Origin: Chloroflexota bacterium
Lineage (GTDB): Bacteria; Chloroflexota; UBA11872; UBA12225; JAJDUF01
Assembly (NCBI GenBank): GCA_034422515.1
Contig: DAOUJP010000020.1
Coordinates: 65,590 to 129,589, forward strand
Direction: 5' to 3'
Length of the DNA stretch: 64,000 bases
The notes beneath the pieces were generated by a model that had not been told where the DNA came from, ran no database searches, and saw nothing but the letters and a program-made list of their open reading frames with translations. Positions 15,305 through 32,427 of the stretch are shown here, in pieces. The stretch's first letter is position 1, and each line of letters begins with the position of its first letter. A program made the position numbers and the translations under genes.

Positions 15305-16701
15305 CAGTTACCTCAAACGTTGGACCGGATCAGTTGCACCGGCTCGTGAAGTTGGCGCTCGACACCGGCGAGGCAGCGAGCCTCGATGAGGCCCAGCGGC
15401 TCTTTGGTAGCTATCGCCTCGGCATCGTGGTCGGAAGCGATATCGCGCATTCCCCGACGCTGCAGGCAGCCGTGTTGACCGCCGTCAACGCGGGCCGTCG
15501 CAGTTTTCTTGGTGGTGTGTCCGTCGACGGCGCAGTTGATGTGCCGCTCCTCATCCCGTGGGGTCGCTGTCGCACGCTAGAGGAAGCCATCGTGGACCTA
15601 CGGGGGACCAGCATGGCTGTTGTCCCCGGGATTCCGCGCATCGTGATCGGCGACACATCCGCACCGTCAGGCGAGGCGGAGTTCGCCGTGCGCGCGACTT
15701 TCGATGGGTGGTGTGGGGGCATCATACCTCTTGACCAAGGTCACCGTCTGCCAGAGCGCCAAGAGTGTGTTCCGGCCGGTGTGCTCGCCGGGGCGCTCGG
15801 AGTTGCCGAGGCATTTCAGTTCGTGCGGGGCGACAGCGCTATTGCGGGCCGGCGGGATGTTGGGCTGTCATTGTGGCAACCTGAAGCCGACACCAATTGG
15901 CTCGCTGCTGGCGAGCGGGGGCCGACTTTGGAGAGGCTGCCAGCGAGAGCTTGGCTGATCGGCCTCGGTCATCTTGGGCAGGCGTTTCTGTGGACACTCG
16001 GACTCCTGCCATATGCGGCGCCTGGAGACGTGAGTCTCGTCCTCCAAGACTTCGATGCACTCGTCGAGGCAAACGACAGTACCTCACTACTCACGACACG
16101 GGCTAGCTTCGGTGTGAAGAAGACACGGGCCATGGCCCGCTGGTGCGAAGCGCGCGGGTTCCGCACTTCGATTGTGGAACGCCGATTCGCTGCCGACTTT
16201 CGGGTTGCGGCAGACGAACCAAGCGTTGCCCTGTGTGGAGTTGACAACGCGCTGGCCCGAGCCGACCTCGAGGATGTTGGCTTCGGCCGCGTCATTGAGG
16301 CCGGGCTCGGCGCTGGCACGCGGGAGTACCTTGCGTTTCAGATACACACTTTCCCGGCACGCCGAGCCGCGAGATGCCGCTGGGGAGCGGACGTAGATCA
16401 CTTGAACGACGGGAATGACAATGCCGATAATCCGGCGTACCGCGCATTAGCCCACGAGGGGCTCGATGATTGTGGAATCACGACGCTGGCCGGACGCACT
16501 GTCGGCGCGTCATTTGTGGGAGCGGTCACGGCCGCAGTGGTCGTCGCCGAACTCATGAGGATGGCAATGGGTGGACCCCGATACGAGGTCGTGGATGGGA
16601 GCCTGCACTCACTTGAACTGCGCCAGGCGGTGGTGTGTGCCGAAGGGGCACCGTTCAATCCAGGAACGGCGGCTGCAACTCTCAAGACCGACGGTCAGTG
16701 A
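15301..16701 (+). CDS. E1-like ubiquitin-activating enzyme (ThiF/MoeB/HesA superfamily; BilC-like)
   Basis: Rossmann GxGxxG (AWLIGLGHLGQAFLWTLGLL) and ThiF-like downstream segments (GVDNALARADLEDVGFGRVIEAGLGAG). Co-operonic with the Ubl, E2 and JAB genes. Confidence 0.6.
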   Translation: MTVTSNVGPDQLHRLVKLALDTGEAASLDEAQRLFGSYRLGIVVGSDIAHSPTLQAAVLTAVNAGRRSFLGGVSVDGAVDVPLLIPWGRCRTLEEAIVDLRGTSMAVVPGIPRIVIGDTSAPSGEAEFAVRATFDGWCGGIIPLDQGHRLPERQECVPAGVLAGALGVAEAFQFVRGDSAIAGRRDVGLSLWQPEADTNWLAAGERGPTLERLPARAWLIGLGHLGQAFLWTLGLLPYAAPGDVSLVLQDFDALVEANDSTSLLTTRASFGVKKTRAMARWCEARGFRTSIVERRFAADFRVAADEPSVALCGVDNALARADLEDVGFGRVIEAGLGAGTREYLAFQIHTFPARRAARCRWGADVDHLNDGNDNADNPAYRALAHEGLDDCGITTLAGRTVGASFVGAVTAAVVVAELMRMAMGGPRYEVVDGSLHSLELRQAVVCAEGAPFNPGTAAATLKTDGQ

Positions 16702-17096: not shown

Positions 17097-20000
17097 TTGG
17101 ATACTGCTACCGTGATCTGTGAAGGACAGGTGCTGACCGGGCCGCTGTTCAGCGAGCCGATGCGGGTGGAGACGGTGCGCCCCAACGGCCCCGATTCCGT
17201 GGAGGCCGGCTTGGTCGGGCAGCAGACGGAGCGGTTCCGGCGGGTGACGCTGACGGCAGCCGACATCGCAAGCCTCTCCGTCGCCAGTGCTGCGCTTACC
17301 TACGACGGAGACGGACAACTCCTGCGGCTCGGCCTCCAGGCGTATACCCTCGGCATCGCCCACGAGTTCGACCCCTACTTCGGCCTCTCCATCTCGCGGG
17401 TGGACCCGCTGCCCCATCAACTCGAAGCGGTCTACGACTACTTCATGAAGCTCCCCAGCGTGCGGTTCCTGCTGGCCGATGATGCCGGTGCCGGCAAGAC
17501 GATTATGGCTGGCCTGTTGATCCGCGAGCTCAAGCTGCGTGGGTTGGCCGAGCGGACTCTGGTCGTGTGCCCAGCCAACCTGACCTTTCAGTGGCAGCGC
17601 GAGTTGAAAGAGAAGTTCGATCAGCAGTTCCTGGTACTGAAGGGGAGCGATGTCCGCGACCAGTTTGGCGTCAACCAATGGCTCAGCCAAAAGCAGGTGA
17701 TTACTTCCCTCGATCTGGCCAAGCGCGAGGATATCTTGCCGGGCTTGCGACAGGTGCGCTGGGACCTGGTCATCGTAGATGAGGCCCATCGCATGTCAGC
17801 GCGAGACGAGACGCACAAGAGCCAACGCTACCGGCTGGGCGAGCTCCTCCGGGACAGCGCCGACAACTTGCTGCTTCTGACCGCCACGCCGCACAAGGGC
17901 GATCCGCACAACTTCACCCTCTTCCTGCAATTGCTCGACCAGGACGCCTATGCCGACGTGCAGTCCATCCGCGCGGCGATGGATAAGCAGCAGGCGCCCT
18001 TCTACCTGCGACGGACGAAGGAGGCGATGGTCTACTTCCCAGAACGTCAGCCGGACGGGGAGTGGGCCGCCCGGCCCGTGTTCACGAAGCGGATCACCCA
18101 CACGGCTGGCTTTGCTATCGCCGGGGATGAGTTCGAGCTGTACCAGGAGGTGACGCGGTTCGTGAAGCGGCAGAGTGCCCGCGCGGCGGCGCAGGGTGAC
18201 GACCGGCGAGCACGCGCCGTCGGCTTCCTCATGTCCCTCTACCAGCGGCGGCTCGCTTCCAGCACCTACGCCATGCGCCGCTCCCTGGAAAATCGGGCGA
18301 AGCGCCTGGCGGAGAACCTCAAGCAGGCCGAGGTCCTGGCACGGACAGTACCGCCCGACTTCTCCAACTGGGAAGCGGAGGAGTTCGAGGAGCTAGAGGA
18401 CCACGAACGCGAGCGCTTGGAGCGACTGCTGGACGCCGTCACGCTGGCCCGCAACGCCGAGGAGGTGCGCCGGGAGATCACGGCGTTGCAGGGCCTCGCC
18501 AGCACAGCCAAGTCCCTCGAAGGGTCCGGGAGCGAAGCGAAGTTGAGCCGGCTCAAGGAAATACTGCGCGAGCAAGGATTCTTCGACCACCCGGACCAGC
18601 AGTTGCTCATCTTCACCGAGTTCAAGGACACCCTCGACTACCTCCTGGAACGGTTGCAGGCCTGGGGGTTCCGCGTGGGAAGCATCCATGGCGGCATGAA
18701 GCCGGGGTCACGCGACGAACCAGGCACCCGGCTCTACACCGAGCAACAGTTCCGGGAGGGCGCCATCCAGGTGCTGGTGGCCACCGAGGCCGCCGGCGAG
18801 GGCATCAACCTCCAGTGCTGCCACATCCTCTTCAACTACGATATTCCCTGGAACCCCAATCGGCTGGAACAGCGTATGGGACGTATCCACCGCTACGGCC
18901 AGCGCTTCGATTGTCTCATCTTCAACTTTGTGGCCACCAACACCATCGAGGGCCGCGTGCTCCAGCGGCTGCTCGATAAGCTCCAAGAGATCAGGGACGC
19001 CCTCGAAGATGATGCCGTCTTCAATGTCGTCGGGGAGGTGTTGCCCGCCGCTCACGTGGATCGCGTGTTTCGGGACTACTACGCTGGCCACCTGGGCGAC
19101 GCTGACCTGGAAGACCGGCTCCTGCGGGACGTGGACGAGCGCCACTTCCGGGCCATTTGCCAGAATGCGCTGGAGGGGTTGGCGGCCAAGGGGCTCAACC
19201 TGGAGCTGCTCGTCGAGCGCCGCGCCCGCGCCCAAGCGCGCCGGATGGTGCCCGAGACCATCGCCCGCTTCCTGGCCGAGAGTGCTGGCAGCGCGTCCCT
19301 CCCCCTTCCCCCCGTGCGCCGCTGGCCACACACGTTTCAGCCGGGCCGGACGCCAACCGCCTTGCGGCGCTACGAGGGCGAGCCGGACTGGCAGCTCCCG
19401 GCGCTGGCGGTGCGCTACCCGCGAATTTCGACGGACCGGCACACGGCGGAAGCGCACAATCTGGAATGGGTTACGCCCGGCCATCCACTGTTCGAAGCCC
19501 TGCGCCGCCACGACCTGGAGCTGGCCCGGGAGGCCTTCGCCAGGGGGGCCTGCTTCCACTCCCTCCAACACGAGACCCCGGCGCGCCTCGACTGCTACAA
19601 GGCGCAGATCGTGGACGGCCTCGGCCACATCATCCATGAGCGGCTGTTCACCGTGGAGTTGGCGGAAGGCCGAGAACCCCGCCTCCGGGAGCCGGACATC
19701 CTCGGCAACCTGACGCCTGCCGCCGCCCCGGACGGCTTGCCTGCCGTGGCTACCCTGCCGGAAGCGACCGAGTGGCTGCACTCGGAGACGCTCGGACCGT
19801 TCATTGACGAGGTGCGTGCGGAGCGCCTGCCGGAGGTCGAGCGTATCGCCGATCATGTCGAAGTGGCCTTGGGCGAGGTGCTGTCCCGAGTTGACCAGGA
19901 GGTCGGCCGCGCCGGCGACGAGGTGCGGAATCAGATCACCGGTGCCGAGGGCCGCTTCGCCCAGGCCGAGGCCCGGCAGGATGAGGCACTGGCACGCCGC

Positions 20001-20540
20001 GAGCGGCGACGGCGCGAACTGACCCAGCAACGGGCGCTGACGCTCCAGGGCGTGGAGCGGCTGGCCAGCGTGCTGATCCTCCCACATCCTGAACGGGGCA
20101 GTGACGAGGTCCAACGGCTGCGGCCCAACCCGGAGACCGAGCAGGTCGCCATGCGCGTGGTCATGGCGCACGAGCAGGCCCAGGGACATCTCGTCACCGA
20201 CGTTCACGAGCAGAACCTGGGCTACGACGTGACCAGCTTGAATAAGGAGACCGGCGAGTCGCGCCTGATCGAGGTGAAGGGCTTGGCCGCTGCCGCTGGC
20301 ACTATCCTGCTGACGCCCAACGAGCGCCGCGTGGCGGAAGACCGCCGCGATTGCTACTGGCTGTACGTCGTCACGAATTGCGCCAGAGAGCCGCGGCTCC
20401 AGGACCCGATCCGGGACCCGGCCCGGTTCCCCTGGCACGAGGTCAGCAAGGTGCAGCATTATTGGCTGGAGCTGAACGCCATGACCCAACCCATGCAGAT
20501 CCGAGAGCAACGGGCGCCATACGGAGGACGGGACTCTTGA
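17097..20540 (+). CDS. SNF2-family helicase with a C-terminal DUF3883-like restriction-endonuclease-fold domain ('anti-phage-associated helicase')
   Basis: TTG start with a GAGAGGA RBS. SNF2 motifs: ADDAGAGKT (I), LVIVDEAHRMS (II), LLLTATPHKG (III), helicase-C (QRMGRIHRYGQ). The C-terminal TPNERRVAEDRRDCYWLYVVTNC...DPARFPWHEV matches DUF3883. Confidence 0.7.
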   Translation: MDTATVICEGQVLTGPLFSEPMRVETVRPNGPDSVEAGLVGQQTERFRRVTLTAADIASLSVASAALTYDGDGQLLRLGLQAYTLGIAHEFDPYFGLSISRVDPLPHQLEAVYDYFMKLPSVRFLLADDAGAGKTIMAGLLIRELKLRGLAERTLVVCPANLTFQWQRELKEKFDQQFLVLKGSDVRDQFGVNQWLSQKQVITSLDLAKREDILPGLRQVRWDLVIVDEAHRMSARDETHKSQRYRLGELLRDSADNLLLLTATPHKGDPHNFTLFLQLLDQDAYADVQSIRAAMDKQQAPFYLRRTKEAMVYFPERQPDGEWAARPVFTKRITHTAGFAIAGDEFELYQEVTRFVKRQSARAAAQGDDRRARAVGFLMSLYQRRLASSTYAMRRSLENRAKRLAENLKQAEVLARTVPPDFSNWEAEEFEELEDHERERLERLLDAVTLARNAEEVRREITALQGLASTAKSLEGSGSEAKLSRLKEILREQGFFDHPDQQLLIFTEFKDTLDYLLERLQAWGFRVGSIHGGMKPGSRDEPGTRLYTEQQFREGAIQVLVATEAAGEGINLQCCHILFNYDIPWNPNRLEQRMGRIHRYGQRFDCLIFNFVATNTIEGRVLQRLLDKLQEIRDALEDDAVFNVVGEVLPAAHVDRVFRDYYAGHLGDADLEDRLLRDVDERHFRAICQNALEGLAAKGLNLELLVERRARAQARRMVPETIARFLAESAGSASLPLPPVRRWPHTFQPGRTPTALRRYEGEPDWQLPALAVRYPRISTDRHTAEAHNLEWVTPGHPLFEALRRHDLELAREAFARGACFHSLQHETPARLDCYKAQIVDGLGHIIHERLFTVELAEGREPRLREPDILGNLTPAAAPDGLPAVATLPEATEWLHSETLGPFIDEVRAERLPEVERIADHVEVALGEVLSRVDQEVGRAGDEVRNQITGAEGRFAQAEARQDEALARRERRRRELTQQRALTLQGVERLASVLILPHPERGSDEVQRLRPNPETEQVAMRVVMAHEQAQGHLVTDVHEQNLGYDVTSLNKETGESRLIEVKGLAAAAGTILLTPNERRVAEDRRDCYWLYVVTNCAREPRLQDPIRDPARFPWHEVSKVQHYWLELNAMTQPMQIREQRAPYGGRDS

Positions 20541-22255
20541 CCCCAGAACGCCTCCAGGCACTCATCGCCGGCGGCGAAACCCTCGCCGTAGAGTTCAAAG
20601 GCGAGGCGGCCGCGCCCTTGGGGGATCGGGAGCTTGTCGAAACGGTCGTCTGTCTGGCTAACCGGAGCGACGACGGCCCCGGCTGGCTGCTGGTCGGAGT
20701 TGAGGATGACGGCCACGTGAGCGGCGCCCGTGCCCGCCACGAGACCGGGGGGATCGACCCCGTGCGTATCCAGGCGCTCGTGGCGAACCGCACGCGCCCC
20801 CCGCTTACCACGCGCGTCGCAGTGGATTCGAGCGGCGGACGGGATATCCTCATCATCGAGGTCCCCGCCGTTCACCGGCCCGTCGGTACGGCGGACGGAC
20901 GCTACCTGCGGCGCGCCATCGGCGGAGATGGCAAGCCATCCTGTGTGCCGTTCCACTTCCACGAGATGCAGTCGCAGCAGGCTGATCGCGGGATGCTCGA
21001 TCATGCTGCACTCCGGCTGGACGGCATCGGGATGGACGCGCTCGATCCGCTGGAGTTCGAACGCTACCGGCGCACAATCCGAGAGCACCGGCACCGTGGG
21101 GACAACGCGTTGCTCGATCTCAGCGACGTGGAACTGGCCAAGGCCCTGGGCGCGGTGGAGCACACCAATGGTGCCGTGACCGTCCGGGTGCTGGGCCTGC
21201 TGCTCTTCGGACGGGAGGACGCGCTGGCTGCCGCCCTGCCGGCGCACGAGGTGGCGTTCCAGGTGCTCGCCGGCAACGACGTGCAGGTCAACGACTTCTT
21301 GCGCTGGCCGCTGCTCCGGGTCATGGAAGAGCTGGCGGCCCGCTTTGAGGCGCGCAACCGCGAGCAAGAGGTCCACGTGGGCATGATCCGCGTCGGAGTG
21401 CCCGATTATCCCGCCCGCGCTTTTCGCGAGGGGGTCGCCAATGCCTTGATCCACCGGGATTACACCCGTCTTGGGGCCGTGCATGTGCAGTGGCGGGAAG
21501 ACCGGCTGGAAATCTCGAACCCCGGCGGCTTCCCGCTGGGAGTGCGCCTGGACAACCTGCTGGTCACTGCGCCGCGCCCCCGCAATCCGCTGCTGGCCGA
21601 TGCGTTCAAGCGCGCCGGCATCGTCGAACGCACCGCGCGGGGCATTGATACCATCTTCTACGAACAGCTTCGCAATGGCCGCCCCGCCCCCTCCTACGAC
21701 CGCAGCACCGAGGCCGGCGTGACCCTGGTGCTCCCCGGCGGCGTAGCCCACCTCGGATTCGTGCGGCTCGTGGTGGAGGCGGGCCGGGAGAGCAGCCCGC
21801 TTTCCCCGGACGAGCTGCTGCTCCTGACCGGGTTACAGCGGGAGCAGCACATAACGGCCGGCGAGGCAGCCGCAATGATACAAAGGGGGGCAGCGGATGC
21901 GGAGCATCTCCTGATGCAGTTGGGGCAGCGCGGTCTCGTCACCGTGCGGGGTTCGCACCGGCGGCAGGGGTTCCGGCTATCGGAAGCTGCGGCCCGGCAG
22001 CTTGGTGACCGCGTGGATGCCCAGCGCGGGCGCGCTGCACCAATCCGGCATGACGAGCTGGTGCGCCGGTACGTTGCGAGTCATGGCTCGATTTCACGCA
22101 AGGAAGCCGCGCGGCTCTGCGCCATCTCCGACTCGCGGGCCTATAGACTGTTGAAGCGGCTGGAGTCGGCCGGGGTCCTCCGGCGCATTGGCACACGCGG
22201 CCGGAACGTCCGCTATGAGCAAAACGCCGAGAAACGCACGGCGCGCGTTTCCTAA
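20537..22255 (+). CDS. AlbA_2 (Schlafen-like 'divergent AAA') + HATPase_c_4 domain protein (putative nucleic-acid-binding regulator)
   Basis: The N-terminal ETLAVEFKGE signature is typical of AlbA_2 (PF04326). The C-terminal part is winged-helix-like. The TTG start at 20537 overlaps the helicase stop (TTGA). Confidence 0.55.
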   Translation: MTPERLQALIAGGETLAVEFKGEAAAPLGDRELVETVVCLANRSDDGPGWLLVGVEDDGHVSGARARHETGGIDPVRIQALVANRTRPPLTTRVAVDSSGGRDILIIEVPAVHRPVGTADGRYLRRAIGGDGKPSCVPFHFHEMQSQQADRGMLDHAALRLDGIGMDALDPLEFERYRRTIREHRHRGDNALLDLSDVELAKALGAVEHTNGAVTVRVLGLLLFGREDALAAALPAHEVAFQVLAGNDVQVNDFLRWPLLRVMEELAARFEARNREQEVHVGMIRVGVPDYPARAFREGVANALIHRDYTRLGAVHVQWREDRLEISNPGGFPLGVRLDNLLVTAPRPRNPLLADAFKRAGIVERTARGIDTIFYEQLRNGRPAPSYDRSTEAGVTLVLPGGVAHLGFVRLVVEAGRESSPLSPDELLLLTGLQREQHITAGEAAAMIQRGAADAEHLLMQLGQRGLVTVRGSHRRQGFRLSEAAARQLGDRVDAQRGRAAPIRHDELVRRYVASHGSISRKEAARLCAISDSRAYRLLKRLESAGVLRRIGTRGRNVRYEQNAEKRTARVS

Positions 22256-22343
22256 ACGCACTCGTGCTATTAAACGCACGCGAACGGCTCATTAGCAGCG
22301 GCCGCTCAACTGGAGAGGGCATCCGATTCTCAGGAAGGTTTGA

Positions 22344-23210
22344 ATGAAAAGGATCGACGACAGTACGTTAGAAACGGTCGCTGAGTTGGTGTGTGGCTCA
22401 GGCGAGGGTGCTGGTGGAGGCTATTCGTCTCCGGGTCCTTATCGAACAATGGGCGAAATCAACGCATTCTTCCGCCGTGCGGGAGTGAGGCCTAGGGGTC
22501 AATCGTCAACCAGAAAGTGGTTCGTGTTGGAGTCTTTGCAATCAGTCAATGGGACAAATGGTCTGGAGAAGATACTGCTGAGAATATCATCTCCAAAAGA
22601 GTGTCGTGGCGATTCAGATTTGACGCAAAAAGTGGTTGACCACCTGAACGACGCTCTGCAGGTAGAGGGGCTGGAGGTCTACCTAGTTGGTGTTGATCCT
22701 CGAATTCGGGAGCGCAAGGCCTCTGCAAGTGTTCCCAGGGTGCAAGCGGCACCGTCAGAAGTTGCTCCCGATTTCCATCGCCTAGTAGAGGATAGCTCAT
22801 TGGCGGCAATATTATTACTGCGGTGGGAGGAAGCTCAGAAATGCGTCAATGCAGAAGCTTATCTCTCTGCTGTAGTAATGATGGGTAGCATCTTAGAGGG
22901 TGTGTTATTGCACAAAGTCGAAACAAATCCTGCAGATGCAAACCGAGCCAAGGAATCGCCGAAGAATCCGACAACTGGAAAACCTAAACAGTTCCACGAG
23001 TGGGGTCTCTCTGCCTTGATTGATGTTGCTCACGAATTAGGCTGGCTTCAGGGGGACGTTAGGCGCTTCAGTCATGCGTTGCGGGATTCTCGCAACATCG
23101 TCCATCCTTACATGGAAAGGTTGCTATCCGATAGACCGGATCGTGATACCTGTTCAATTTGCTGGCAGGTTGTTCGTGCGGCTGTTGCCGACTTGTTGGA
23201 AATAGACTGA
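22344..23210 (+). CDS. Hypothetical protein with a C-terminal HEPN-like Rx4-6H motif (RDSRNIVH); noticeably lower-GC gene
   Basis: The ORF sits in the AT-richest stretch of the window and is embedded between defence genes. The motif match alone is weak evidence. Confidence 0.35.
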   Translation: MKRIDDSTLETVAELVCGSGEGAGGGYSSPGPYRTMGEINAFFRRAGVRPRGQSSTRKWFVLESLQSVNGTNGLEKILLRISSPKECRGDSDLTQKVVDHLNDALQVEGLEVYLVGVDPRIRERKASASVPRVQAAPSEVAPDFHRLVEDSSLAAILLLRWEEAQKCVNAEAYLSAVVMMGSILEGVLLHKVETNPADANRAKESPKNPTTGKPKQFHEWGLSALIDVAHELGWLQGDVRRFSHALRDSRNIVHPYMERLLSDRPDRDTCSICWQVVRAAVADLLEID

Positions 23211-23215
23211 ATGAC

Positions 23216-26191
23216 ATGATCCCGAAAGAGTGCAAGCGACTGGCGGAGGTGGACTTCCCCATTTCCGAGGTGTCCAAGCACGCGGCGCGGGAGAAGTCCA
23301 TCCGACACGGTCATCCCTCGACGCTGCACCTGTGGTGGGCGCGGCGGCCTCTGGCCTCGTCGCGTGCCGTATTGCTGGCGCTGCTGCTGCCCGATCCATG
23401 CGAGTCGCTCTGCCCGCAATCATTCCGGGAACGCGCCAGGGAAGCCCTGCTGGCGCTGCGGACGCGGCCCTCCGCGTGGGAGAAACAGGTCCAGACAGAT
23501 GAAGGGCTGCGGGCGGCGCTCCTGCGCTTCATTGCCGACTTTGCCAACTGGGACAACGCCGCGAACGACGACTACCTGACGACGGGACGGGCGCTGGTGC
23601 GGGCCGCGCACCCGGAGCAGTCGCCGCTGGTCGTGGACCCCTTTGCCGGCGGCGGCTCCATCCCGCTGGAGGCGCTGCGGCTCGGCTGCGAGGCCTTTGC
23701 CAGCGACCTCAACCCGGTGGCCTGCCTGATCCTCAAGGTGCTGCTGGAGGACATCCCGCGCCATGGGCCGGGCCTGGCGGATGAGCTGCGGCGGGTCGGC
23801 GCGGAGATCAAGGAACAGGCAGCTAAGGAACTGGCCGACCTCTACCCCCAGGACCCGGACGGGGCAACACCTATCGCCTACCTCTGGGCACGGACGGTGC
23901 GCTGTGAAGCGCCCAACTGCGGTGCAGAGATTCCACTCATGCGCTCGCTGTGGCTGTGCCGGAAGGACAAGCGCAAGCGGGCGCTGCGGACCAGGATCGT
24001 GCGGGCGGACAGCGGGCCACCGCGCGTCGAGTTCGAGATATTCGCGCCGCAGTCCAATAGCGAGGTGGCCGACGGCACCGTGGCTCGCGCCAAGGCGACC
24101 TGTGTCTGCTGCGGTGCTGTGCTGCCGCCGGAGCGAGTACGCGCCCAGTTGTCTGCACAGAAAGGTGGCGCGGACGCAGTGTTCAATGCGGCCGGCCGCC
24201 GCACCGGCGGCGCGCGCCTGACGGCGGTCGTTACGCTCCGTCCTAGTGAAAGGGGCCGCCACTACCGCCTACCGACGGCTGACGACTATTCGGCTGTGCA
24301 TCTGGCACGGGAGCAGGTGAGCCGTATCCTGGATGAATGGGAGCGTGGTGGGAAGCAGGGCCTCTGCCCGGTGCCGGACGAGGTGATTTCGCTGAACGAA
24401 ATCCGGCGAATCAGTGTCCCGATCTACGGTATGCGTCGGTGGGGTGACCTGTTCACAGCGCGGCAGAAGGCAGCACTGGTGCAGTTGGGAAGGTTGGTCC
24501 CAACCTACGGGGAATCACTGAGAAGTTTGCTCGCCATAGCCGTGAGTCGAGTCGCTGGTGGTGGTGCATCCAGTTCCGCATGGCTGGCTTCTGGGGAGGA
24601 GGTCAAGCATGCGATCCCTCGGAATGCTCTGCCAATGGTCTGGGACTTTGGCGAATCGAACTGTCTAGCAACCACGTCGAGAAGCTGGGATAGTGCTCTT
24701 AACTCGATAGTTAATGTACTTGAAGGTGGCTCACTGGGATTAGTCTCCAGCCGAGTTGAACAGGCGGACGCTACCGATCACTCTCTGCACGATCAAGCCG
24801 CCGGAGTGTGGTTCACGGATCCACCTTACTACGACTCCGTACCCTATGCACATCTTTCGGATTTCTTCTTCGTATGGCTCCGACGTTCACTCGAACATAC
24901 GTTACCGGCAAGCCCCTTGAGTGAACACAACAGTACGACACCCAAAGACCGTGAAATTGTAGTGGATCGTCCGCACCACTTGAGCACATCCAAGAAGGAT
25001 GCCCTATTCTACGAGACCGAAATGGTGAATGCTTTCATCGAAGGTCGCAGAGTATTGCGGGAAGACGGGATTGGTTCTGTGGTGTTTGCCCACAAGACCA
25101 CCGAAGGCTGGGAAGCACTACTCTCCGGCCTGATCCGTGGCAGTTGGACTATCACCGGCTCCTGGCCCATTGCGACTGAAATGGGCGCAAGACTCAATGC
25201 GCGCGAGACCGCAGCTCTCGCCACCAGCATTCACCTCATTTGCCGTCCGCGACCCAAGGACGCGCCGGTTGGCGATTGGGCCGACGTACTGCGGGAGTTG
25301 CCTGGGCGCGTCGGGGACTGGATGCAGCGGTTGCAGGGCGAGGGCGTCCGGGGCGCGGACCTGGTGTTCGCCTGCGTCGGACCGGCGCTGGAGATCTACA
25401 GCCGCTACCGCCGCGTGGAGACACCGGCGGGCGACCAGATCGAGCTGCCGGCGTACCTGGAGAAAGTGTGGGAGGTCGTCGGCCGCGAGGCGTTGGAGCA
25501 GGTGCTGGGCACGGCGGAGGCGCAGGCCCGCAACGGCGCAGCCGCCGCACTGGAAGAGGATTCCCGCCTGACCGCGCTATTCCTGTGGACGCGGCAAAGC
25601 ACCGACGAACGGCCTGCTGCTGGGAACGACGCCGGTGATGATGCAGAGGACGGCGAGGCGGCAGCGTCGCGGCGCCGGCCCGCCGGCTACAGCCTGCCGT
25701 TCGACGTGGTGCGCCGCTTTGCCCAGCCGCTCGGCATCCACCTCGAGGCCTGGGAAGCGCGCCTCGTCGAGACCAAGAAGGGTGTGGTGCGCCTGCTGCC
25801 GGTCAGGGAACGCAGCGAACAGCTTTTCGGTGAGGCTGGGGCCGGCACGCTGGCCGACGAGATCGAATGGAACGCGGCGGCCGCGCAGCAGTTGAGCCTT
25901 TTCTCCACCGCACCGCCGCCCGTGCGCGGCCGGCAGCGAGGCCGGGGGCGGATGGCGGCCGTCGCGGACGATCTCGATGCTCCCTCGGCCGCGACGACGC
26001 TAGACCGGGTTCACGCCGCAATGCTCTTGCAGGCGTCGGGCCGCAGTCAGGCATTGCGGAACCTGCTGCGGGCCGAGCAGGAACGCGGCCCTGATTTCCT
26101 GCGCCTCGCCAACGCGCTGACCGCCCTCTACCCGCGCGGCAGCGATGAGAAGCGGCTGCTGGACGCCATGCTGTTGGCGGCGCCACGGTGA
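23216..26191 (+). CDS. DUF1156-domain N6-adenine DNA methyltransferase ('anti-phage-associated DUF1156 protein')
   Basis: N-terminal KRLAEVDFPISEVSKHAAREKSIRHGHPSTLHLWWARRPLASSRAV is the DUF1156 signature. SAM motif I VVDPFAGGGSIPLEA. Motif IV FTDPPYYDSVPY (DPPY) places it in the N6-adenine class. Confidence 0.75.
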   Translation: MIPKECKRLAEVDFPISEVSKHAAREKSIRHGHPSTLHLWWARRPLASSRAVLLALLLPDPCESLCPQSFRERAREALLALRTRPSAWEKQVQTDEGLRAALLRFIADFANWDNAANDDYLTTGRALVRAAHPEQSPLVVDPFAGGGSIPLEALRLGCEAFASDLNPVACLILKVLLEDIPRHGPGLADELRRVGAEIKEQAAKELADLYPQDPDGATPIAYLWARTVRCEAPNCGAEIPLMRSLWLCRKDKRKRALRTRIVRADSGPPRVEFEIFAPQSNSEVADGTVARAKATCVCCGAVLPPERVRAQLSAQKGGADAVFNAAGRRTGGARLTAVVTLRPSERGRHYRLPTADDYSAVHLAREQVSRILDEWERGGKQGLCPVPDEVISLNEIRRISVPIYGMRRWGDLFTARQKAALVQLGRLVPTYGESLRSLLAIAVSRVAGGGASSSAWLASGEEVKHAIPRNALPMVWDFGESNCLATTSRSWDSALNSIVNVLEGGSLGLVSSRVEQADATDHSLHDQAAGVWFTDPPYYDSVPYAHLSDFFFVWLRRSLEHTLPASPLSEHNSTTPKDREIVVDRPHHLSTSKKDALFYETEMVNAFIEGRRVLREDGIGSVVFAHKTTEGWEALLSGLIRGSWTITGSWPIATEMGARLNARETAALATSIHLICRPRPKDAPVGDWADVLRELPGRVGDWMQRLQGEGVRGADLVFACVGPALEIYSRYRRVETPAGDQIELPAYLEKVWEVVGREALEQVLGTAEAQARNGAAAALEEDSRLTALFLWTRQSTDERPAAGNDAGDDAEDGEAAASRRRPAGYSLPFDVVRRFAQPLGIHLEAWEARLVETKKGVVRLLPVRERSEQLFGEAGAGTLADEIEWNAAAAQQLSLFSTAPPPVRGRQRGRGRMAAVADDLDAPSAATTLDRVHAAMLLQASGRSQALRNLLRAEQERGPDFLRLANALTALYPRGSDEKRLLDAMLLAAPR

Positions 26192-26225
26192 TTACTGGAC
26201 GCACTTTGGAACACGGAGGGATGAC

Positions 26226-26483
26226 ATGACGACCAATCCCGAGCTCCTCCAGCGCATCACCGCTCGGCCGGGCGTCTTTGGTGGCAAGCCGATCATCCGC
26301 GACATGCGTATTGCCGTGGAGCATGTGCTGGGGATGCTTGCAGCCGGTGATTCTGCGGAGACGATTCTCCGGGAATATCCGGTCCTGGAACCTGAAGACA
26401 TCCAGGCGTGCCTGCTTTTTGCTCACCGCTCAATGGCCGGCGAGCATGTGTATGAACGTGTACCCGTGAGGGAAGCGTCTTGA
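26226..26483 (+). CDS. DUF433 family protein (antitoxin-like partner of DUF5615)
   Basis: 86 aa, RITARPGVFGGKPIIRDMRIAVEHVLGMLAAGDSAETILREYP, the typical DUF433 fold. Its stop overlaps the next gene's TTG start. Confidence 0.6.
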   Translation: MTTNPELLQRITARPGVFGGKPIIRDMRIAVEHVLGMLAAGDSAETILREYPVLEPEDIQACLLFAHRSMAGEHVYERVPVREAS

Positions 26484-26839
26484 AGTTCCTGCTCGACGTA
26501 TGCGCGGCGTCCCACAGCATGCATACGACGCTAACGGACTTGGGCCACGATGTCCTATCAGCTTTGGAAAGTGCCCCACTAGCCACCGATGAAGAATTGC
26601 TCGCCCTCGCAACTGAGCAGCAGCGGGTGCTTATTACCGAGGACAAGGACTTTGGCGAGTTGGTATTTGTACGTCGCTTGCCGCACCCATGCATCATTCG
26701 CTTTGTCGGCATGTCGGTCGCGGAGAAAGTGGCCGCAATGGGTGATCTGATCGAGTACCATGCGGATGCAATGTATGAGCGGAGTATGATCGTGGTGACA
26801 CAGAGTCGGGTTCGGATACGTCGCGGAGCACGCGGTTAG
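26480..26839 (+). CDS. DUF5615 (PIN-like / Mut7-C RNase fold) toxin-like protein
   Basis: MKFLLDVCAA...VLITEDKDFGEL is characteristic of DUF5615, which pairs with DUF433 in type II TA-like cassettes. Confidence 0.55.
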   Translation: MKFLLDVCAASHSMHTTLTDLGHDVLSALESAPLATDEELLALATEQQRVLITEDKDFGELVFVRRLPHPCIIRFVGMSVAEKVAAMGDLIEYHADAMYERSMIVVTQSRVRIRRGARG

Positions 26840-26954
26840 GGAAGCGGCGGCTAGTGAACCCTTGGTAAGGCGGTCGTAGCGTCCGCGCGTTGGTGTACCG
26901 GCCGCCGTCAGGCTGAAGGACAACCAGAGGCTTCAGGCCGCTGAGGTAGGAGGC

Positions 26955-29753
26955 TTGCTCATGCAACCCTGGTACAGAGTGGTCACGCCCCGTCAGGAAG
27001 TCCGGGAGGGCCGGTCGTTCAGTCCGGACGAGTTTGCGATTGCCCTGGAGCAGGTGGTGGCCGGGACCGCGCCACCGGACTACCGCGACCCGGCGCAGTT
27101 CTTCTCGCGCACGTGCTTTACCCGCGCCTTGACGGAACATGCCGGCATGGTGCTCCGGCGCCTATCCGGCCGGACGGAGAACACGGCGCCGGTGCTGACG
27201 CTGATTACGCAGTTCGGCGGCGGGAAGACGCACACGCTCACGTCGCTCTACCACCTCGCCAAGGCGGGGCCGGCCGCCGCCAAGCTACCCGGTGTCGCGG
27301 CGCTGCTACGCGCGGCGGGTATTGCGGAGGCTCCCGCCGCCCGCGTTGGCGTCTTCGTCGGCAATGCCTGGGACCCCGCGCCAGGACGGGAGACACCCTG
27401 GATTGACCTGGCCCGGCAACTGGCCGGCGATGCCGGCGTCGCCGCGCTCGGCGCAACCGCCCGGACCACGCCGCCGGGAACCGAGGCGCTGGCGCGGGTA
27501 TTCGCCGCCGCGGAGGCGCCGGTGCTGCTGCTCTTCGATGAGGTCCTGAACTTCGTCAATCGCCATCGCCGCCTGGCAGATAGCTTCCATGCCTTTCTCC
27601 AGAACCTGACCGTCGCCGTCACCGGCGCGACCCGCGCGGCAGCGGTCATCAGCCTGCCGCGCAGCCAGGTCGAGATGACCGCGCGGGACCAGGAGTGGCA
27701 GGAGCGGATTACCAAGGTCGTGCGCCGCGTTGCCCGCGATCTCATCGCCAACGACGAGTCCGAGATCAGCGAGGTGGTGCGCCGGCGCCTGTTCGAGGAC
27801 CTCGGGAGCAAGCGCGTGCGCCGGAACGTGGCTCGGACCTATGCCGACTGGTGCTTCGAGCGCAGCGCTAGGCTGCCCGCCGAGTGGACGGCCGTGGACA
27901 CCGCGACCACGGACAAGCGGGCCAGAGACTTCCTCCGCAACCGATTCGAAGCCTGCTATCCCTTCCACCCGGCGACGCTGTCCGTCTTCCAGCGCAAGTG
28001 GCGCGCGCTCACCCAATTCCAACAGACTCGCGGGGCGCTGGCGATGCTGGCGCAATGGATTTCCTGGGCCTCGCGCGAGCAGTTCCAGCAGGCGCGGACG
28101 GAGCCGCTGATTACCCTGGGATCGGCGCCGCTGCATGTGCCCGAGTTCCGCGCCGTGGTGCTCGGCCAGCTGGGGGAGCAACGGCTTGACGTGGCCATTG
28201 ACGCCGATATCGCCGGGGAGCTGGCGCACGCCAAGGCCTTGGACGCGGACACCACGGGTGCGCTGCGCGACATCCACTGCCGCGTGGGCACGGCCATCCT
28301 GTTCGAGTCTTCCGGGGGGCAGGTGGACAGAGTGGCCAGCCTGCCGGAACTGCGGTTTGCGCTGGGGGAGGAGCCTGCTGTCGATACCACAACCGTTGAC
28401 AGCACCGCATTAGCGCTGGAGCGATCCGGGTTCTTTATCCGGAAGATTGGTACGGACGGCTATCGCATCCACCATCAAGCGACGCTACGCAAAGTCGTCA
28501 GCGACCGGCGCGCCTCGCTCGACGAGGAGACAGAGATCAAGCCGGCGGTCCGCAAGCTGGTTCAGGGTGAGTTCGCCCGCGACCCGACGATTCCGGTCGC
28601 CTATTTTCCGGAGGATGGGAGCGCGGTGCCGGATTCGCCGCGCCTGACGCTGGTCGTCGTGGACCCCGCTGAGGATTGGGACGGTGGGGGGCTCCTCCGC
28701 GCACGCATCGGCGAGTGGACCAAGGAGCGGGGCCGGTCGCCGCGGCTCTATCCTGGCTCGCTGGTCTGGTGTGCAAAGAAGCCGGGACGGGAGCTGCGGG
28801 AGCGGGTTGCGCTATGGCTCGCCTGGCAGCGCGTGTCGCGCGAGGTTGCAAGCGGCTCGCTCGGTACCGAGTTCGACCGCGGGGAGCGCACCGAAGTGCA
28901 GACCAGGGTCAGGGAGGCGGAGGCGGAGGCCAAAGAGGAGGTGTGGGCCAGTTATCGCTTCGTTGCGCTGCGGGAGGCCCAAGCGGCGGACGAACTGAAG
29001 GTCATAGACCTCGGCGCGGGCCACTCCAGCGCCAGCGGCACCCTCTGCGATCGGATTGTCACCGCCTTGAAGTCCGAGGCGCTGCTGAACGAGTCCGTCG
29101 GAGCCGGGTACATCGAGCGGCATTGGCCGCCGGCCTTTGAGGAGACGGGTGCCTGGCCACTCAGCGGCCTGCGGCGGAGCTTTCTCGACGGCTCGTTGAC
29201 CCGGCTGCTGGATGCGGATGCGGTGCTGCGCCGGAAGATCGTCGAATTCGTGGGTAGTGGGGACTTTGGGCTGGCCTCCGGGGACCGCGGCGACGGCCAA
29301 TATGCGCGGCTGGAGTACGCAGAACAGATTGGGGAGGAAGCGGTCACGTTTGACGACGACATCTTCCTGCTCACCAAGGCCAGGGCTCAACAGGTCCAGG
29401 CCCCTTCCGGCGGCCGGACGCCGCTGCAACCGGTACTCTCGATGGCCCCGTCCACCACCACTGAGCCGGACCCCGATTCTGGTTTGAGCGGCCTCTCGCC
29501 CACTCCCCATCCGCCATCAGGGGGAAAAACGGCAACGCTGCGGCTCACGGGTACTGTGCCGCTGGAACTCTGGAACGGGATCGGGAGCAGAGTGCTAGCT
29601 AGGCTCCGACCCGCAGGAAGCCGGAGCGTGGATGTAGATGTCGCGCTTGCCGTGACGGTTGACGCAGCGCAGGCCCATCACCAAACGATGGAACTGCGGC
29701 AGGCCCTCGCCGACCTGAGACTGGACGATCAGGTGCAGGTGGAAGCATCGTGA
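26955..29753 (+). CDS. DUF499-domain P-loop ATPase ('anti-phage-associated DUF499 protein')
   Basis: 932 aa. Walker A TQFGGGKTHTLTSL and Walker B LLLFDEV. The size and the N-terminal MxxWYRVVTPRQEVREG segment are typical of DUF499 proteins that co-occur with DUF1156 methyltransferases and DUF3883 helicases. Confidence 0.65.
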   Translation: MLMQPWYRVVTPRQEVREGRSFSPDEFAIALEQVVAGTAPPDYRDPAQFFSRTCFTRALTEHAGMVLRRLSGRTENTAPVLTLITQFGGGKTHTLTSLYHLAKAGPAAAKLPGVAALLRAAGIAEAPAARVGVFVGNAWDPAPGRETPWIDLARQLAGDAGVAALGATARTTPPGTEALARVFAAAEAPVLLLFDEVLNFVNRHRRLADSFHAFLQNLTVAVTGATRAAAVISLPRSQVEMTARDQEWQERITKVVRRVARDLIANDESEISEVVRRRLFEDLGSKRVRRNVARTYADWCFERSARLPAEWTAVDTATTDKRARDFLRNRFEACYPFHPATLSVFQRKWRALTQFQQTRGALAMLAQWISWASREQFQQARTEPLITLGSAPLHVPEFRAVVLGQLGEQRLDVAIDADIAGELAHAKALDADTTGALRDIHCRVGTAILFESSGGQVDRVASLPELRFALGEEPAVDTTTVDSTALALERSGFFIRKIGTDGYRIHHQATLRKVVSDRRASLDEETEIKPAVRKLVQGEFARDPTIPVAYFPEDGSAVPDSPRLTLVVVDPAEDWDGGGLLRARIGEWTKERGRSPRLYPGSLVWCAKKPGRELRERVALWLAWQRVSREVASGSLGTEFDRGERTEVQTRVREAEAEAKEEVWASYRFVALREAQAADELKVIDLGAGHSSASGTLCDRIVTALKSEALLNESVGAGYIERHWPPAFEETGAWPLSGLRRSFLDGSLTRLLDADAVLRRKIVEFVGSGDFGLASGDRGDGQYARLEYAEQIGEEAVTFDDDIFLLTKARAQQVQAPSGGRTPLQPVLSMAPSTTTEPDPDSGLSGLSPTPHPPSGGKTATLRLTGTVPLELWNGIGSRVLARLRPAGSRSVDVDVALAVTVDAAQAHHQTMELRQALADLRLDDQVQVEAS

Positions 29754-30081
29754 TCGCCAGCCCGAACCGCCACAACACGGCGATGCCTGGAGGGAATAGC
29801 CACGTGGTGGGTGTGGGCGGCGGTGGCTTGGCAAGATGCTGGAATCTGTCCGAGCACCAACCGTCCTTGACACCGAGGCTGTGCAGAAACTGAGGCTGGG
29901 CTGCCCCTGGTAGGTCGGGAGGGGCATTCTTCTGGGACGTCAGCGGGGTGGCTACGCTCGTAGTCGTTATCGCCGTGGGCATATAGTTCCAGGAAGAGTG
30001 GGGGATAGTGAACCGTTTCGGTGGAGTTGTCCCCACCGGGACGGGCTTAAACGCAAGAAGCCCGCATATAGGGGGAGGCAG

Positions 30082-30116
30082 GGGAAGCCATCGCTGGCAA
30101 TGCGATGGCTTCCCCT
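30082..30116. terminator. Bidirectional hairpin terminator (GGGGAAGCCATCGC-TGGCAA-TGCGATGGCTTCCCC) between the convergent DUF499 and helicase genes
   Basis: Perfect 14-bp inverted repeat immediately 3' of the minus-strand helicase stop (30127) and ~330 nt after the DUF499 stop. Confidence 0.5.
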
Positions 30117-30126
30117 ACTGGAGCGA

Positions 30127-32427
30127 TCAGCGTCCCGCGCTGACCAACTTGGCCTCCTGCTCTTGAGCCACCAGCCACTCGAAGAGCGGCAGGGTCGCGG
30201 GCGACTGTTTGCGCCGGCCCTTTGGCTTCGCGGGTTCCTGGGCCAGGAACTCTGCCCAGGAGAACAGTTCCTCTTGCTGCGGTGCCGGGTCGTCGTCGTG
30301 CCGACGTTTGCCGTTGACCGCTACCGCTGCTTCACCCTTGCCGTTCGCCCCGCTGGCGGGGGCCGCGACCACCATCGGCTCGCTTGCGACGGCCTGCCAG
30401 CCCTCGTCCACCAGCAACGTCTCGGCGTCGGCTGCGGCTGCCTGCGCTTGGGCGAACACCGCTGCCACCGCCTCGGTTGCCGCCGGCTCATCCCCACTGA
30501 CGATCTGGCGGGCCAGCGCCAGCAGCAGGTCGTCGCCATCGTCCCCGTAGGCGGCCAGCCCCTCCTCCGGCAGCTCCCCCTCCACCGCCAGCGAGCTTTG
30601 CAGCTTCTTCGCCACCAGTGTCAGGGCATCGGCCTGCAAGGTCTGCCGGTAGGCCAGGTAGACTACCTGCACCGGCCGGGTCTGCCCGATCCGCCAGGAC
30701 CGGCGCGAGGCCTGCCGCAGCGTGTAGACCGAGTAGTCCGTCTCGTACCAGCAGACGGTCGCAAAGTCGATCAGGTCCAAGCCCGTCTGCACCAGCCGGG
30801 GATGACACACCAGCACGTCCAGGCCTTCCTCGACCCGCTCCGCCACCCACGCTTCGCGGCGGTCAGGCTTCACCGCGTCCGCCTTCAACACGGCCACCCG
30901 GGCGCCCTGCCGGGTGAGCAGCGCGTGCAGCCGCCCGGTGATGTCCCGCGTGCCGGTATGGGTGACGTAGACCAGCACCCGGCGCCCGGCACGGCGCTCC
31001 GTTGCCACCAGGTCCAGCAAGGCCTGCTCCTTCGGATACACGCGCTCCGCGGACAAGGGCGGTACCTGGACCAGGGGGTGCTGCGTCTGCGGATCGAAGA
31101 CCGTCTCGCCGCGGGTGCAGCCGTCGGGGTAGGCCAGCAGGGTTTGCAGGTAGGCGCCCAGCAGCCGCTTGGACCCCTGGGACAGCGCAGCGGCCAGGGC
31201 CTTGCGCAGCGTGGTGAAGACGGCCTGGTAGGCGCTGCGCTGGGAATACCCCGTCTCATCCGGCGTGTCGTCGAGGTCCACCAGGCGTACCTGCTCGGTG
31301 TAGGGCGGTAAGCCACTGGCCACGTCGGCGAGGCGCAGGAAGACGGTGTGCCCGATGAGGTGGAACAGGGCGGCCGGGGCCAGGCCGGGCCGCTCCCGGA
31401 TCACCGTGCGGTAGCGCCGGCGCCGGCTGTGGCGGCCGTCCTCCAGCGGCTCATCGGCCGGCCGGCGGACGGTGTGCTCGACAAACCCGTAGCGGGCGAT
31501 CCAGCGGGACTCTTCGTGGTGCGCGAACTCCGCCCGCAGGGCCGGGGAGAACCGGTAGAGCAGGTGGAAGAGGGTGCTGGCGTAGCCACCGGCCAGGGTG
31601 CCGGTGAGCGCCAGGGAGGTCCCGCAGACGTCGGCCAGAATGCCGGCGGCGATGCCCTGGGCGGACCCGCGCCCCTTGTATTCATGCACCTCGTCGGCGA
31701 TCAGCAGGTCGAACCAACCCGGCAGCCGCTGCTTGATGTAGTCGGCGAGGGGATAGCGGCGGGGACCGCGGCGGTCGGCCTGCCAGAGGGCGGCGCCGCA
31801 CGCACTACAGCGGCGCTTGCGGCGGGCCAGCTCCGCGTCCGTCAGGGGCACGCCGTCGGAGGTGACTACCTGGGTGGCACAGACGGGGCACGTCGGGACG
31901 CGGAACGGTTCCCCCGTGGCCTCGTCCCGCAGCAGCCGCCCGTCGGCGGTGGCCCAGCGTTGAGTGACAGCGGGCTGCCAGCGGTAGGAGAGCTTGGCGC
32001 GCTCGCGGGACATGATGGCGAAGAGCGGGCCGGGGCCGCTGGCGTGGCGCAGCCGCTCCAGGTCCGTGATGGAGGTGACGATGGCGGCGCGGGCACCGGG
32101 GATGGTGGCTTCCACCTCCCGCTGCCACTTCCGGGTCAGGTGGGGTGGGACCAGCACCAGGATGCGCTGGCAGCCGGCCAGGTGGGCGGCGGCGGTGGCG
32201 ATGAAGGTCTTGCCGGTACCCATCTCGCCGACGACGGTGGTGCCGCGCTGGGTGGTGAGGGAGTGGGCGGTGCCCCGAATGGCGGTTTCCTGGGCCCCCA
32301 GCGGGGTGCGCAGCAACGGGGGCAGCGGCCGGTCGTCCCGGGCGGGCCGGTACTGGGGTGGGTAGGAGTCCACCACCCGCTGGGCGATGGCGTCCTTGTA
32401 GGTGTCGAGGAACGTGCTCAGGTTCAT
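30127..32427 (-). CDS. DEAD/DEAH (SF2, SNF2-like) helicase with an internal zinc-ribbon (phage/ICE replication module)
   Basis: Walker A GEMGTGKTF, DEVH box (LLIADEVHEYKG), a CPVC...CSAC zinc ribbon, and a helicase C-terminal domain (VCHPRLVQTGLDL). Confidence 0.6.
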   Translation of the reverse strand: MNLSTFLDTYKDAIAQRVVDSYPPQYRPARDDRPLPPLLRTPLGAQETAIRGTAHSLTTQRGTTVVGEMGTGKTFIATAAAHLAGCQRILVLVPPHLTRKWQREVEATIPGARAAIVTSITDLERLRHASGPGPLFAIMSRERAKLSYRWQPAVTQRWATADGRLLRDEATGEPFRVPTCPVCATQVVTSDGVPLTDAELARRKRRCSACGAALWQADRRGPRRYPLADYIKQRLPGWFDLLIADEVHEYKGRGSAQGIAAGILADVCGTSLALTGTLAGGYASTLFHLLYRFSPALRAEFAHHEESRWIARYGFVEHTVRRPADEPLEDGRHSRRRRYRTVIRERPGLAPAALFHLIGHTVFLRLADVASGLPPYTEQVRLVDLDDTPDETGYSQRSAYQAVFTTLRKALAAALSQGSKRLLGAYLQTLLAYPDGCTRGETVFDPQTQHPLVQVPPLSAERVYPKEQALLDLVATERRAGRRVLVYVTHTGTRDITGRLHALLTRQGARVAVLKADAVKPDRREAWVAERVEEGLDVLVCHPRLVQTGLDLIDFATVCWYETDYSVYTLRQASRRSWRIGQTRPVQVVYLAYRQTLQADALTLVAKKLQSSLAVEGELPEEGLAAYGDDGDDLLLALARQIVSGDEPAATEAVAAVFAQAQAAAADAETLLVDEGWQAVASEPMVVAAPASGANGKGEAAVAVNGKRRHDDDPAPQQEELFSWAEFLAQEPAKPKGRRKQSPATLPLFEWLVAQEQEAKLVSAGR

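Follow-up and report, generated by a model that had tools for sequence, protein, structure and literature searches.

In the Chloroflexota contig DAOUJP010000020.1, the content of guanine plus cytosine (GC) drops sharply over one gene that lies between the helicase and the methyltransferase of a defence operon, and the question arises of what this gene encodes and whether it belongs to the operon or has recently come into it. We analysed the stretch of 64,000 nt (64 kb) around the gene, hereafter called the window, and compared it with other homolog-bearing loci, labelled L001 and so on. A preliminary description, made from the sequence itself, had proposed a recently acquired effector or an accessory toxin module with a HEPN-like motif. 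Our results show that the gene encodes a protein with a C-terminal HEPN domain, that it is an accessory gene of an Hma operon, and that it has diverged together with the core genes of that operon. The product is probably a ribonuclease (RNase) that backs up the other activities of the operon.

The AT-rich gene and its HEPN domain

Region 22260-23215 contains a single ATG-initiated open reading frame (ORF), on the plus strand and of 288 aa (22344..23210). GC calculated along the window is 0.50-0.53 over 22200-23200 and 0.68-0.70 in both flanks, and the gene has a GC of 0.51 versus 0.66 for the whole window. Among all 867-bp segments of the 64 kb, the gene is essentially the GC minimum (z = -3.45, with 0.05% of the segments as low), and the lowest segment begins at 22308. 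At third codon positions, GC (GC3) is 0.495 in this gene, versus 0.846 in HmaA, 0.775 in the AlbA_2 gene, 0.755 in HmaB and 0.817 in HmaC. The drop over about 950 bp and the single 288-aa frame with RDSRNIVH near its C-terminus, both noted in the preliminary description, were confirmed, and the AT-rich gene is real and far from chance. We found 414 close full-length homologs with 63-91% identity, all unnamed and distributed over many phyla; thus, the gene is real and strong purifying selection acts on it. When 1.84 billion representatives were searched with a profile, 2,681 clusters were obtained at E<=1e-3. On both strands in and around the gene, no Rfam family, sigma-70-like promoter or intrinsic terminator was detected, and the antisense ORFs that a program-made list places across the gene have no support. 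Past the Shine-Dalgarno region, no upstream operator or promoter is conserved among the relatives, and the leader common to the closest of them is only about 25 nt.

The protein matches R-x(4-6)-H only once, at RDSRNIVH (residues 247-254). Across 135 representatives with pairwise identities below 50%, H254 is conserved in 100%, R250 in 99%, N251 in 97% and R247 in 95%, so that the motif picked out at the beginning is the most conserved feature of the family. E185 is also present in 100% of these representatives and is the sole fully invariant column in alignment A2. Within the Rx6H motif, an acidic residue (D/E) follows R247 and an asparagine follows R250. In the AlphaFold2 (AF2) model of the full protein (predicted local distance difference test, pLDDT, 84.7), an N-terminal domain of residues 1-125 and a linker precede an all-helical C-terminal domain of residues 144-288. 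The motif closes helix 244-252 and extends into the next loop, the helix ending just before H254, and E185 is in helix 173-194, with a spacing that is not the typical Ex3[KR]. The hallmarks of HEPN domains are an acidic residue in the second helix, an R...H motif at the end of the third, and an insert that separates these two helices (PMC3710099). HEPN domains are metal-independent endoRNases active as dimers or higher oligomers (PMC3710099; for the DUF4145 case RAZR, PMC13017515); their active site is a composite one formed in the dimer, and their products carry 2',3'-cyclic phosphate ends. Since the model and the conservation of the motif match these hallmarks, the assignment to HEPN in the preliminary description is correct. 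As modelled, the C-terminal domain has a HEPN fold of the DUF4145-like clade, with the full predicted active-site set R247/R250-N251...H254 and E185.

A Pfam scan reached a single family, DUF4145 (PF13643), an established HEPN family, over residues 162-252 (E=0.0096), with a score of 16.4 bits, below the gathering threshold of 23.1 bits. Similarly weak, sub-threshold matches to DUF4145 were obtained for 21 of 26 close members (best E 6.4e-5), and two homologs (P0098 and P0099) carry a precomputed PF13643 assignment. Judging from these matches, the protein is best called DUF4145-like, and not a curated DUF4145 member. The Abi_2/AbiD-like or Swt1-like kinship suggested previously was not borne out: neither the Abi_2/AbiD-AbiF nor the HEPN_Swt1 profile matched the protein at E<=10, or any of the 26 close and 115 distant relatives at E<=0.1 or 0.01. 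Membership of the AbiJ-like proteins, which combine AbiJ-NTD with Abi_C, was considered and rejected, because AbiJ_NTD3 was matched only marginally (3 of the 26 at E ~0.05 and 1 of the 115 at 1e-3) and Abi_C was matched neither by the protein nor by the same 26 and 115 relatives. Sequence-profile searches of PDB with full-length, N-terminal and C-terminal alignments gave chance-level matches (SEC10, a polyketide synthase, FAM118B and KCC transporters) and reached neither the RAZR chain nor any other solved HEPN.

Among the 150 best representatives, 82 contain both halves of the protein and 66 contain only the C-terminal ~145 residues, behind unrelated N-termini; therefore, the protein is modular. 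In 16 of the 115 distant relatives, the Pfam AbiTii N-terminal domain precedes the same C-terminal domain. The N-terminal domain modelled alone consists of six helices and a hairpin (pLDDT 86.3; predicted template modelling score 0.81). A homolog search with this domain alone, which returned mostly truncated fragments, found two stand-alone copies of ~135 aa and one fusion to another C-terminal partner (PF07929), and thus the N-terminal domain is an independent module.

Two further observations concern the N-terminal side. A Gly-rich loop, C17-GSGxGxGGG-Y27 (residues 17-27, nt 22392-22424), looks like a loop that binds phosphate or a ligand. Close homologs show no variation at its residues G18, G22 and Y27; its pLDDT is <50 and it is not kept in distant relatives. 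One distant relative (P0172, 345 aa) has an N-terminal Cys4 zinc-ribbon-like motif (CxxC...CPxC) before the same HEPN domain, which recalls the architecture of RAZR.

An accessory gene of the Hma operon

The gene lies in a co-oriented plus-strand operon (17097-29753) with the order HmaA, Schlafen/AlbA_2, the HEPN gene, HmaB, DUF433/DUF5615 and HmaC (Table 1). Co-oriented HmaA, HmaB and HmaC are the core of the system that PADLOC names Hma, which, according to a 2026 survey (PMC12839542), has been renamed the Type-1 DUF499-centred BREX-related (BR) system. The HEPN gene is an accessory, not a core, component: it has no PADLOC model, it is absent from many Hma loci, and about half of its close homologs occur without Hma. 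From the arrangement of the genes, we propose that it is expressed together with the HmaB methylase. In the same survey, standalone HEPN and Schlafen-HK-wHTH genes inside BREX-related loci are described as 'back-up' RNase effectors, and HEPN is fused to the N-terminus of DUF499 in 1370 of 2446 Type-1 BR taxa. Such HEPN-DUF499 fusions were first noted in PMC3710099, and their HEPN was assigned to the Swt1/Abi2 clade. The idea of an accessory effector or toxin module nested in a methylase/helicase system fits these back-up effectors. The neighbouring AlbA_2 protein had been taken for a regulator, whereas the survey treats its Schlafen/AlbA_2 + HATPase_c_4 + HTH architecture as an RNase-type effector.

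Table 1. Positions of the HEPN gene, its parts and the genes of the surrounding operon in the window
Feature	Position (nt)	Strand	Evidence and remarks
HmaA, SNF2 helicase with C-terminal NOV_C (PD-(D/E)XK-type) nuclease; core primary effector	17097..20540	+	Pfam SNF2-rel_dom and NOV_C; PADLOC HmaA E=4e-175
Schlafen/AlbA_2 + HATPase_c_4 + HTH protein, 572 aa	20537..22255	+	Pfam; start overlaps the HmaA stop by 4 nt
Shine-Dalgarno-like AGGAAGG	22332..22338	+	Read from the sequence; 5 nt before the ATG of the HEPN gene, inside the 88-nt gap between the AlbA_2 gene stop (22255) and that start
HEPN gene, 288-aa two-domain protein (N-terminal helical domain and C-terminal DUF4145-like HEPN domain)	22344..23210	+	ORF, homologs, AF2 model
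N-terminal domain, residues 1-125	22344..22718	+	Six helices and a beta-hairpin; Gly-rich loop, STRKW (54-59) and SPKE (83-86) motifs
Poorly conserved linker, residues 126-143	22719..22772	+	Low conservation; pLDDT block mean 59
C-terminal HEPN domain, residues 144-288	22773..23207	+	H1 151-169, H2 173-194, insert 195-243, H3 244-252, H4 267-285
E185 codon, conserved acidic residue in HEPN helix 2	22896..22898	+	100% in 135 representatives
Predicted catalytic motif R247-D-S-R250-N251-I-V-H254 (Rx6H, nested RNxxH)	23082..23105	+	Conservation; placement in the AF2 model
HmaB, DUF1156 N6-adenine DNA methyltransferase, 991 aa	23216..26191	+	Pfam; PADLOC HmaB E=7e-115; ATG 5 nt past the stop of the HEPN gene
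DUF433/DUF5615 pair (toxin-antitoxin-like, PIN-related)	26226..26839	+	Between HmaB and HmaC; GC 0.56-0.60
HmaC, DUF499 ATPase	26961..29753	+	Pfam; PADLOC HmaC E=6e-96; Walker A GGGKT at ~residue 88; without N-terminal HEPN fusion

The context of the gene was compared among 29 close homologs with usable flanks. Thirteen of them adjoin HmaA and/or HmaB in the same slot, which is occupied in L001, L006, L008, L011, L014, L017, L018, L026 and L028, and the hosts of the embedded copies belong to at least seven phyla (Planctomycetota, Elusimicrobia, Pseudomonadota, Chthonomonadales, Desulfobacterota, Binatia, Nitrospirota and others). Fifteen homologs are solo, mostly in Dehalococcoidia and other Chloroflexota. 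Some of them belong to transposon or defence islands or have MNT/HEPN or DUF433/DUF5615 genes as neighbours, and others are surrounded by plain metabolic genes; at 63-77% identity, these copies have upstream gaps of their own of ~220-300 bp. The remaining homolog, from a WOR-1 bacterium (L009, 3081-14305), follows another SNF2 helicase and ends 7 nt before a different N6_N4 methylase. In a neighbour-joining tree, calculated without support values, solo and embedded copies are intermixed. The existence of many solo copies indicates that the protein is probably self-contained. A broad occurrence of homologs outside defence contexts had been named in the preliminary description as a point that would speak against its reading. 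This was found in part: about half of the close homologs are solo, some of them in metabolic contexts, and the other half are embedded in Hma. The solo homologs argue against strict dependence on Hma and not against HEPN.

The recent acquisition proposed previously was rejected by comparison of the window with L001, the closest Hma locus. Amino-acid identity between the two is 0.76 for the HEPN protein, 0.82 for HmaA, 0.82 for HmaB and 0.76 for HmaC, and identity at 4-fold sites is 0.54, 0.57, 0.59 and 0.55, respectively; thus, the gene has co-diverged with the core genes at synonymous sites. That the slot is occupied in at least seven phyla likewise speaks against a recent arrival. GC3 of the gene is ~0.5 in both the window and L001, versus ~0.76-0.86 for the core genes, and in 22 of 26 loci the gene or its homolog has a lower GC than the sequence around it. 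Therefore, the low GC3 is a maintained trait of the family and not the scar of a recent transfer. One possible explanation of this trait is that poor codons, and with them a low expression, are selected in a gene for a toxic RNase; another possibility is recurrent exchange with the solo copies.

Function of the protein and alternative explanations

The systems closest to the one in the window are the DUF499-centred BREX-related loci with an embedded HEPN gene (PMC12839542, NAR 2026; for the HEPN-DUF499 fusions, PMC3710099), which have the same SNF2-REase helicase, DUF1156 methylase and DUF499 ATPase. As in the window, the HEPN gene of these systems lies inside the core locus, flanked by core genes, with a Schlafen/AlbA_2-HATPase_c_4-wHTH companion. 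The part of the survey available to us treats HEPN generically, and a family in which a DUF4145-like HEPN follows a distinct N-terminal domain is not singled out in it; the present family differs from the systems described there in its many solo copies and in a HEPN clade other than the DUF499-fused Swt1/Abi2 type. RAZR (PD-T7-4), a zinc-finger plus DUF4145 HEPN protein, is a single-protein abortive-infection RNase that cleaves ssRNA, is activated by assembly, and requires its R and H residues (PMC13017515). Like the present protein as modelled, it joins a small N-terminal domain for sensing or assembly to a DUF4145-like HEPN at the C-terminus. However, its N-terminus is a zinc ribbon instead of six helices and a hairpin, its motif spacing is R146...H154 in contrast to R247/R250...H254, and it stands alone, whereas the present gene is embedded in an operon. 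The AbiJ/SadR-type (AbiJ-NTD + Abi_C HEPN) and AbiTii-HEPN (c2405-like) proteins (PMC3710099, PMC13590631) share with the window protein a length of ~270-290 aa, a variable N-terminus, a C-terminal HEPN and an R-polar-x(n)-H motif, but the window protein has no Abi_C or AbiTii match. SadR is an RNase, and its R/N/H mutants lose defence (PMC13590631). The gene encodes an unannotated putative effector with an N-terminal domain and a HEPN domain in a BREX-related operon resembling restriction-modification (R-M) systems, an arrangement of a known kind.

On the basis of RAZR, SadR/AbiJ and the HEPN-DUF499 fusions, from which RNase activity, trigger and outcome are taken by analogy, we consider it probable that the protein is an auto-inhibited, self-contained two-domain HEPN RNase and a long-standing accessory effector of the Hma operon, of a back-up, abortive-infection type. 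The N-terminal domain would regulate or assemble the protein and the C-terminal HEPN would catalyse; most likely, the former holds the RNase inactive and responds to a trigger, by sensing it or by assembling on it. The trigger could be failure or inhibition of the DNA-targeting core, or the appearance of a phage product. The protein would then oligomerise and cut cellular and/or phage RNA, and this cleavage would stop translation and phage production, an abortive arrest for cases in which DNA restriction by HmaA is insufficient. In favour of this explanation are the conservation and placement of the motif, the link to DUF4145, the identification of the system by PADLOC, the 5 nt that separate the gene from HmaB without a terminator, the recurrent slot, the lack of a HEPN in HmaC, the precedents in the literature, and the solo copies with upstream gaps of their own. 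Several points weigh against it. The R-to-H spacing is ambiguous, being Rx6H from R247 or Rx3H from R250; the DUF4145 score lies below the threshold; and the protein has no assignment in PADLOC, NCBIfam or PHROG. No antitoxin or inhibitor partner is evident, which leaves the silencing of a stand-alone RNase unexplained. Several solo copies are in ordinary metabolic neighbourhoods without defence genes, and therefore context alone does not establish a role in defence. Phage-encoded homologs are essentially absent and plasmid copies are rare, which is neutral for defence and adds nothing in its favour. Furthermore, RNase activity, toxicity, trigger, oligomerisation and abortive outcome are ascribed to this family by analogy. 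An origin as an anti-defence or superinfection-exclusion gene was rejected on the same near absence of phage homologs.

An alternative possibility could be that the protein is an obligate Hma subunit, which supplies in trans the HEPN otherwise fused to the DUF499 ATPase and works only when docked on HmaC or HmaB. The HEPN fusion is in fact absent from HmaC of the window and of the five co-occurring loci with a complete HmaC, L001, L006, L008, L011 and L018 (in these five, 929-967 aa, aligned over the full length), whereas, as mentioned above, more than half of the Type-1 taxa have it, and the tight coupling to HmaB, with a 5-nt spacer, and the co-divergence with the core genes point in the same direction. 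However, these co-occurring loci are interrelated, so the six HEPN-less HmaC proteins out of six are not independent cases, and the DUF499-fused HEPN belongs to the Swt1/Abi2 clade in contrast to the DUF4145-like domain found here. About half of the close homologs, at 63-77% identity, are solo without any Hma gene within 10 kb and intermixed with the others in the tree, and none of the 150 representatives is fused to any Hma protein. We therefore regard an obligate subunit as unlikely.

The slot itself could suggest a selfish or addiction toxin cassette that hitch-hikes in a permissive site or stabilises the island without sensing infection, with its odd composition produced by repeated horizontal exchange. 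The HmaA-HmaB slot takes other cargo (SIR2 and HerA in L013, AlbA_2 in the window), a DUF433/DUF5615 pair occupies the HmaB-HmaC gap, solo copies are often beside MNT/HEPN or DUF433/DUF5615 toxin-antitoxin genes or transposases, and the lower GC recurs in the 22 of 26 loci. Such a cassette is nevertheless improbable, because no cognate antitoxin is a regular neighbour, the gene has diverged along with the Hma core instead of being replaced, and its position directly upstream of a methylase is conserved across phyla, even in the different R-M-like operon of L009. Moreover, no flanking repeats or recombination sites were noted, the closest relatives having in common the leader of ~25 nt. A catalytically inert HEPN, which would regulate the operon by binding a ligand or nucleic acid as MtlR and the KNTase_C-type HEPN domains do, could be imagined from the conserved Gly-rich loop, which could bind a ligand. 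But the R...H motif is typically lost in HEPN families without catalytic activity (PMC3710099), while R247, R250, N251, H254 and E185 are 95-100% conserved even in very divergent relatives, and family scans detected no DNA-binding domain in the protein or its relatives; this explanation is very improbable.

The fold of the N-terminal domain raises a further, tentative possibility, on which we would place rather little confidence: a CARD-like bacterial death-fold fused to a HEPN RNase would make a single-chain prokaryotic 'death domain-RNase' that fires by homotypic, filament-like assembly. The bacterial death-like and CARD-like adaptors (bDLD1-3, PMC8195603; the gasdermin-system CARD, PMC10312443; PDB 9frr and 8ss1) are among the closest known systems for this domain. 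Neither the family scan nor the PDB profile search gave support for a death-fold at the sequence level. Paired adaptor copies are a property of death-like/EAD adaptors, the 'EAD principle' (PMC8195603). A hidden Markov model search (--max) over all ORFs of the window and related loci found the gene itself and no second copy of the domain, although a very divergent copy could escape, and the paired-adaptor model was rejected on this result. We keep the death-fold as a lead. If it is true, the pairing of a bacterial death-fold with such an effector would be one that is absent from the surveys consulted here, assembly would resemble that of inflammasome and Myddosome adaptors, and the protein would provide a simple system for assembly-driven activation of a HEPN RNase inside an R-M-like operon.

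Hma (Type-1 BREX-related) systems are widespread and their mechanism is poorly understood, and a strongly conserved accessory gene that recurs in the slot from helicase to methylase is now identified as a predicted HEPN RNase. This fills an annotation gap of ~2,700 representative clusters, all 'hypothetical' and without a Pfam, NCBIfam or PADLOC model, and the family could join the profile sets of defence finders. The auto-inhibited RNase favoured here offers a two-layer model, in which DNA restriction by HmaA would be backed by abortive arrest at the RNA level. The persistently low GC3 in a gene that co-diverges with a GC-rich operon and the possible death-fold are entry points for further work, and neither alters the picture of a component of the expected kind.

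Related loci and other genes of the window

In L009, the order of genes is DUF4062-HATPase_c_4, SNF2 helicase, a 197-aa protein of unknown family, the HEPN homolog, the N6_N4 methylase and a Res subunit with a TnsA-like nuclease, and the homolog thus has the same position just upstream of a methylase as in the window. In L013 (17249-20102, Chloroflexota), a SIR2_2 protein and a HerA-type ATPase take the place of AlbA_2 and HEPN in the HmaA-HmaB slot, and the HEPN homolog lies upstream of HmaA, at a distance of ~3 kb. The slot behaves like a site that accepts defence modules as cargo. In L010 (2202-2423), L015 (10865-11080) and L021 (10851-11093), the homolog is followed only by a fragment of the HmaB N-terminus (30-44 aa aligned, 59-80% identity). 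These fragments could be decayed or truncated Hma operons, frameshifts in metagenome-assembled genomes, or results of co-mobilisation at the junction. On a Streptomyces chartreusis plasmid (NZ_CP108842.1; L045, 7625-12825), the gene for a 1,453-aa 'AAA domain-containing protein' ends in a 4-nt overlap with a full-length relative (32% identity), which lies beside a TIGR02678/02679/02680 + DUF2397 (Wadjet/JetABCD-type) cluster.

Within the operon, a second GC trough of the window (24221-25288, GC ~0.52-0.56) is located inside HmaB, in the middle of the DUF1156 methylase. HmaB of the window and HmaB of L001 have 81% identity over their N-terminal 352 aa and only 64% over the remainder. Recombination may have exchanged a variable target-recognition region here. 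The DUF433/DUF5615 pair occupies the same HmaB-HmaC gap in L001, and in L048 it adjoins a solo HEPN gene.

Downstream of HmaC, the minus strand of 30127-33646 encodes a 766-aa helicase (ResIII/Helicase_C) and a DUF6094/MTS methyltransferase, which may be a further R-M-like module; plus-strand ORFs at 29998-32460 have no family matches and are probably spurious. Just upstream of the Hma operon are Bil defence genes for ubiquitin-like conjugation, namely BilA_UBL_2 (13813-14334), a BilB-like gene (14338-14826) and BilD (15301-16701, PADLOC BilD E=6.5e-170). No BilC/E2 was recognised in this cluster of the window, and the interval from BilB to BilD contains a 150-aa call on the minus strand. At 10270-13671, a 1133-aa fusion of Peptidase_M78 (IrrE-like), UvrD helicase and PD-(D/E)XK nuclease gives strong GajB-like and DRT-helicase matches in PADLOC and is probably a further defence gene of the island.

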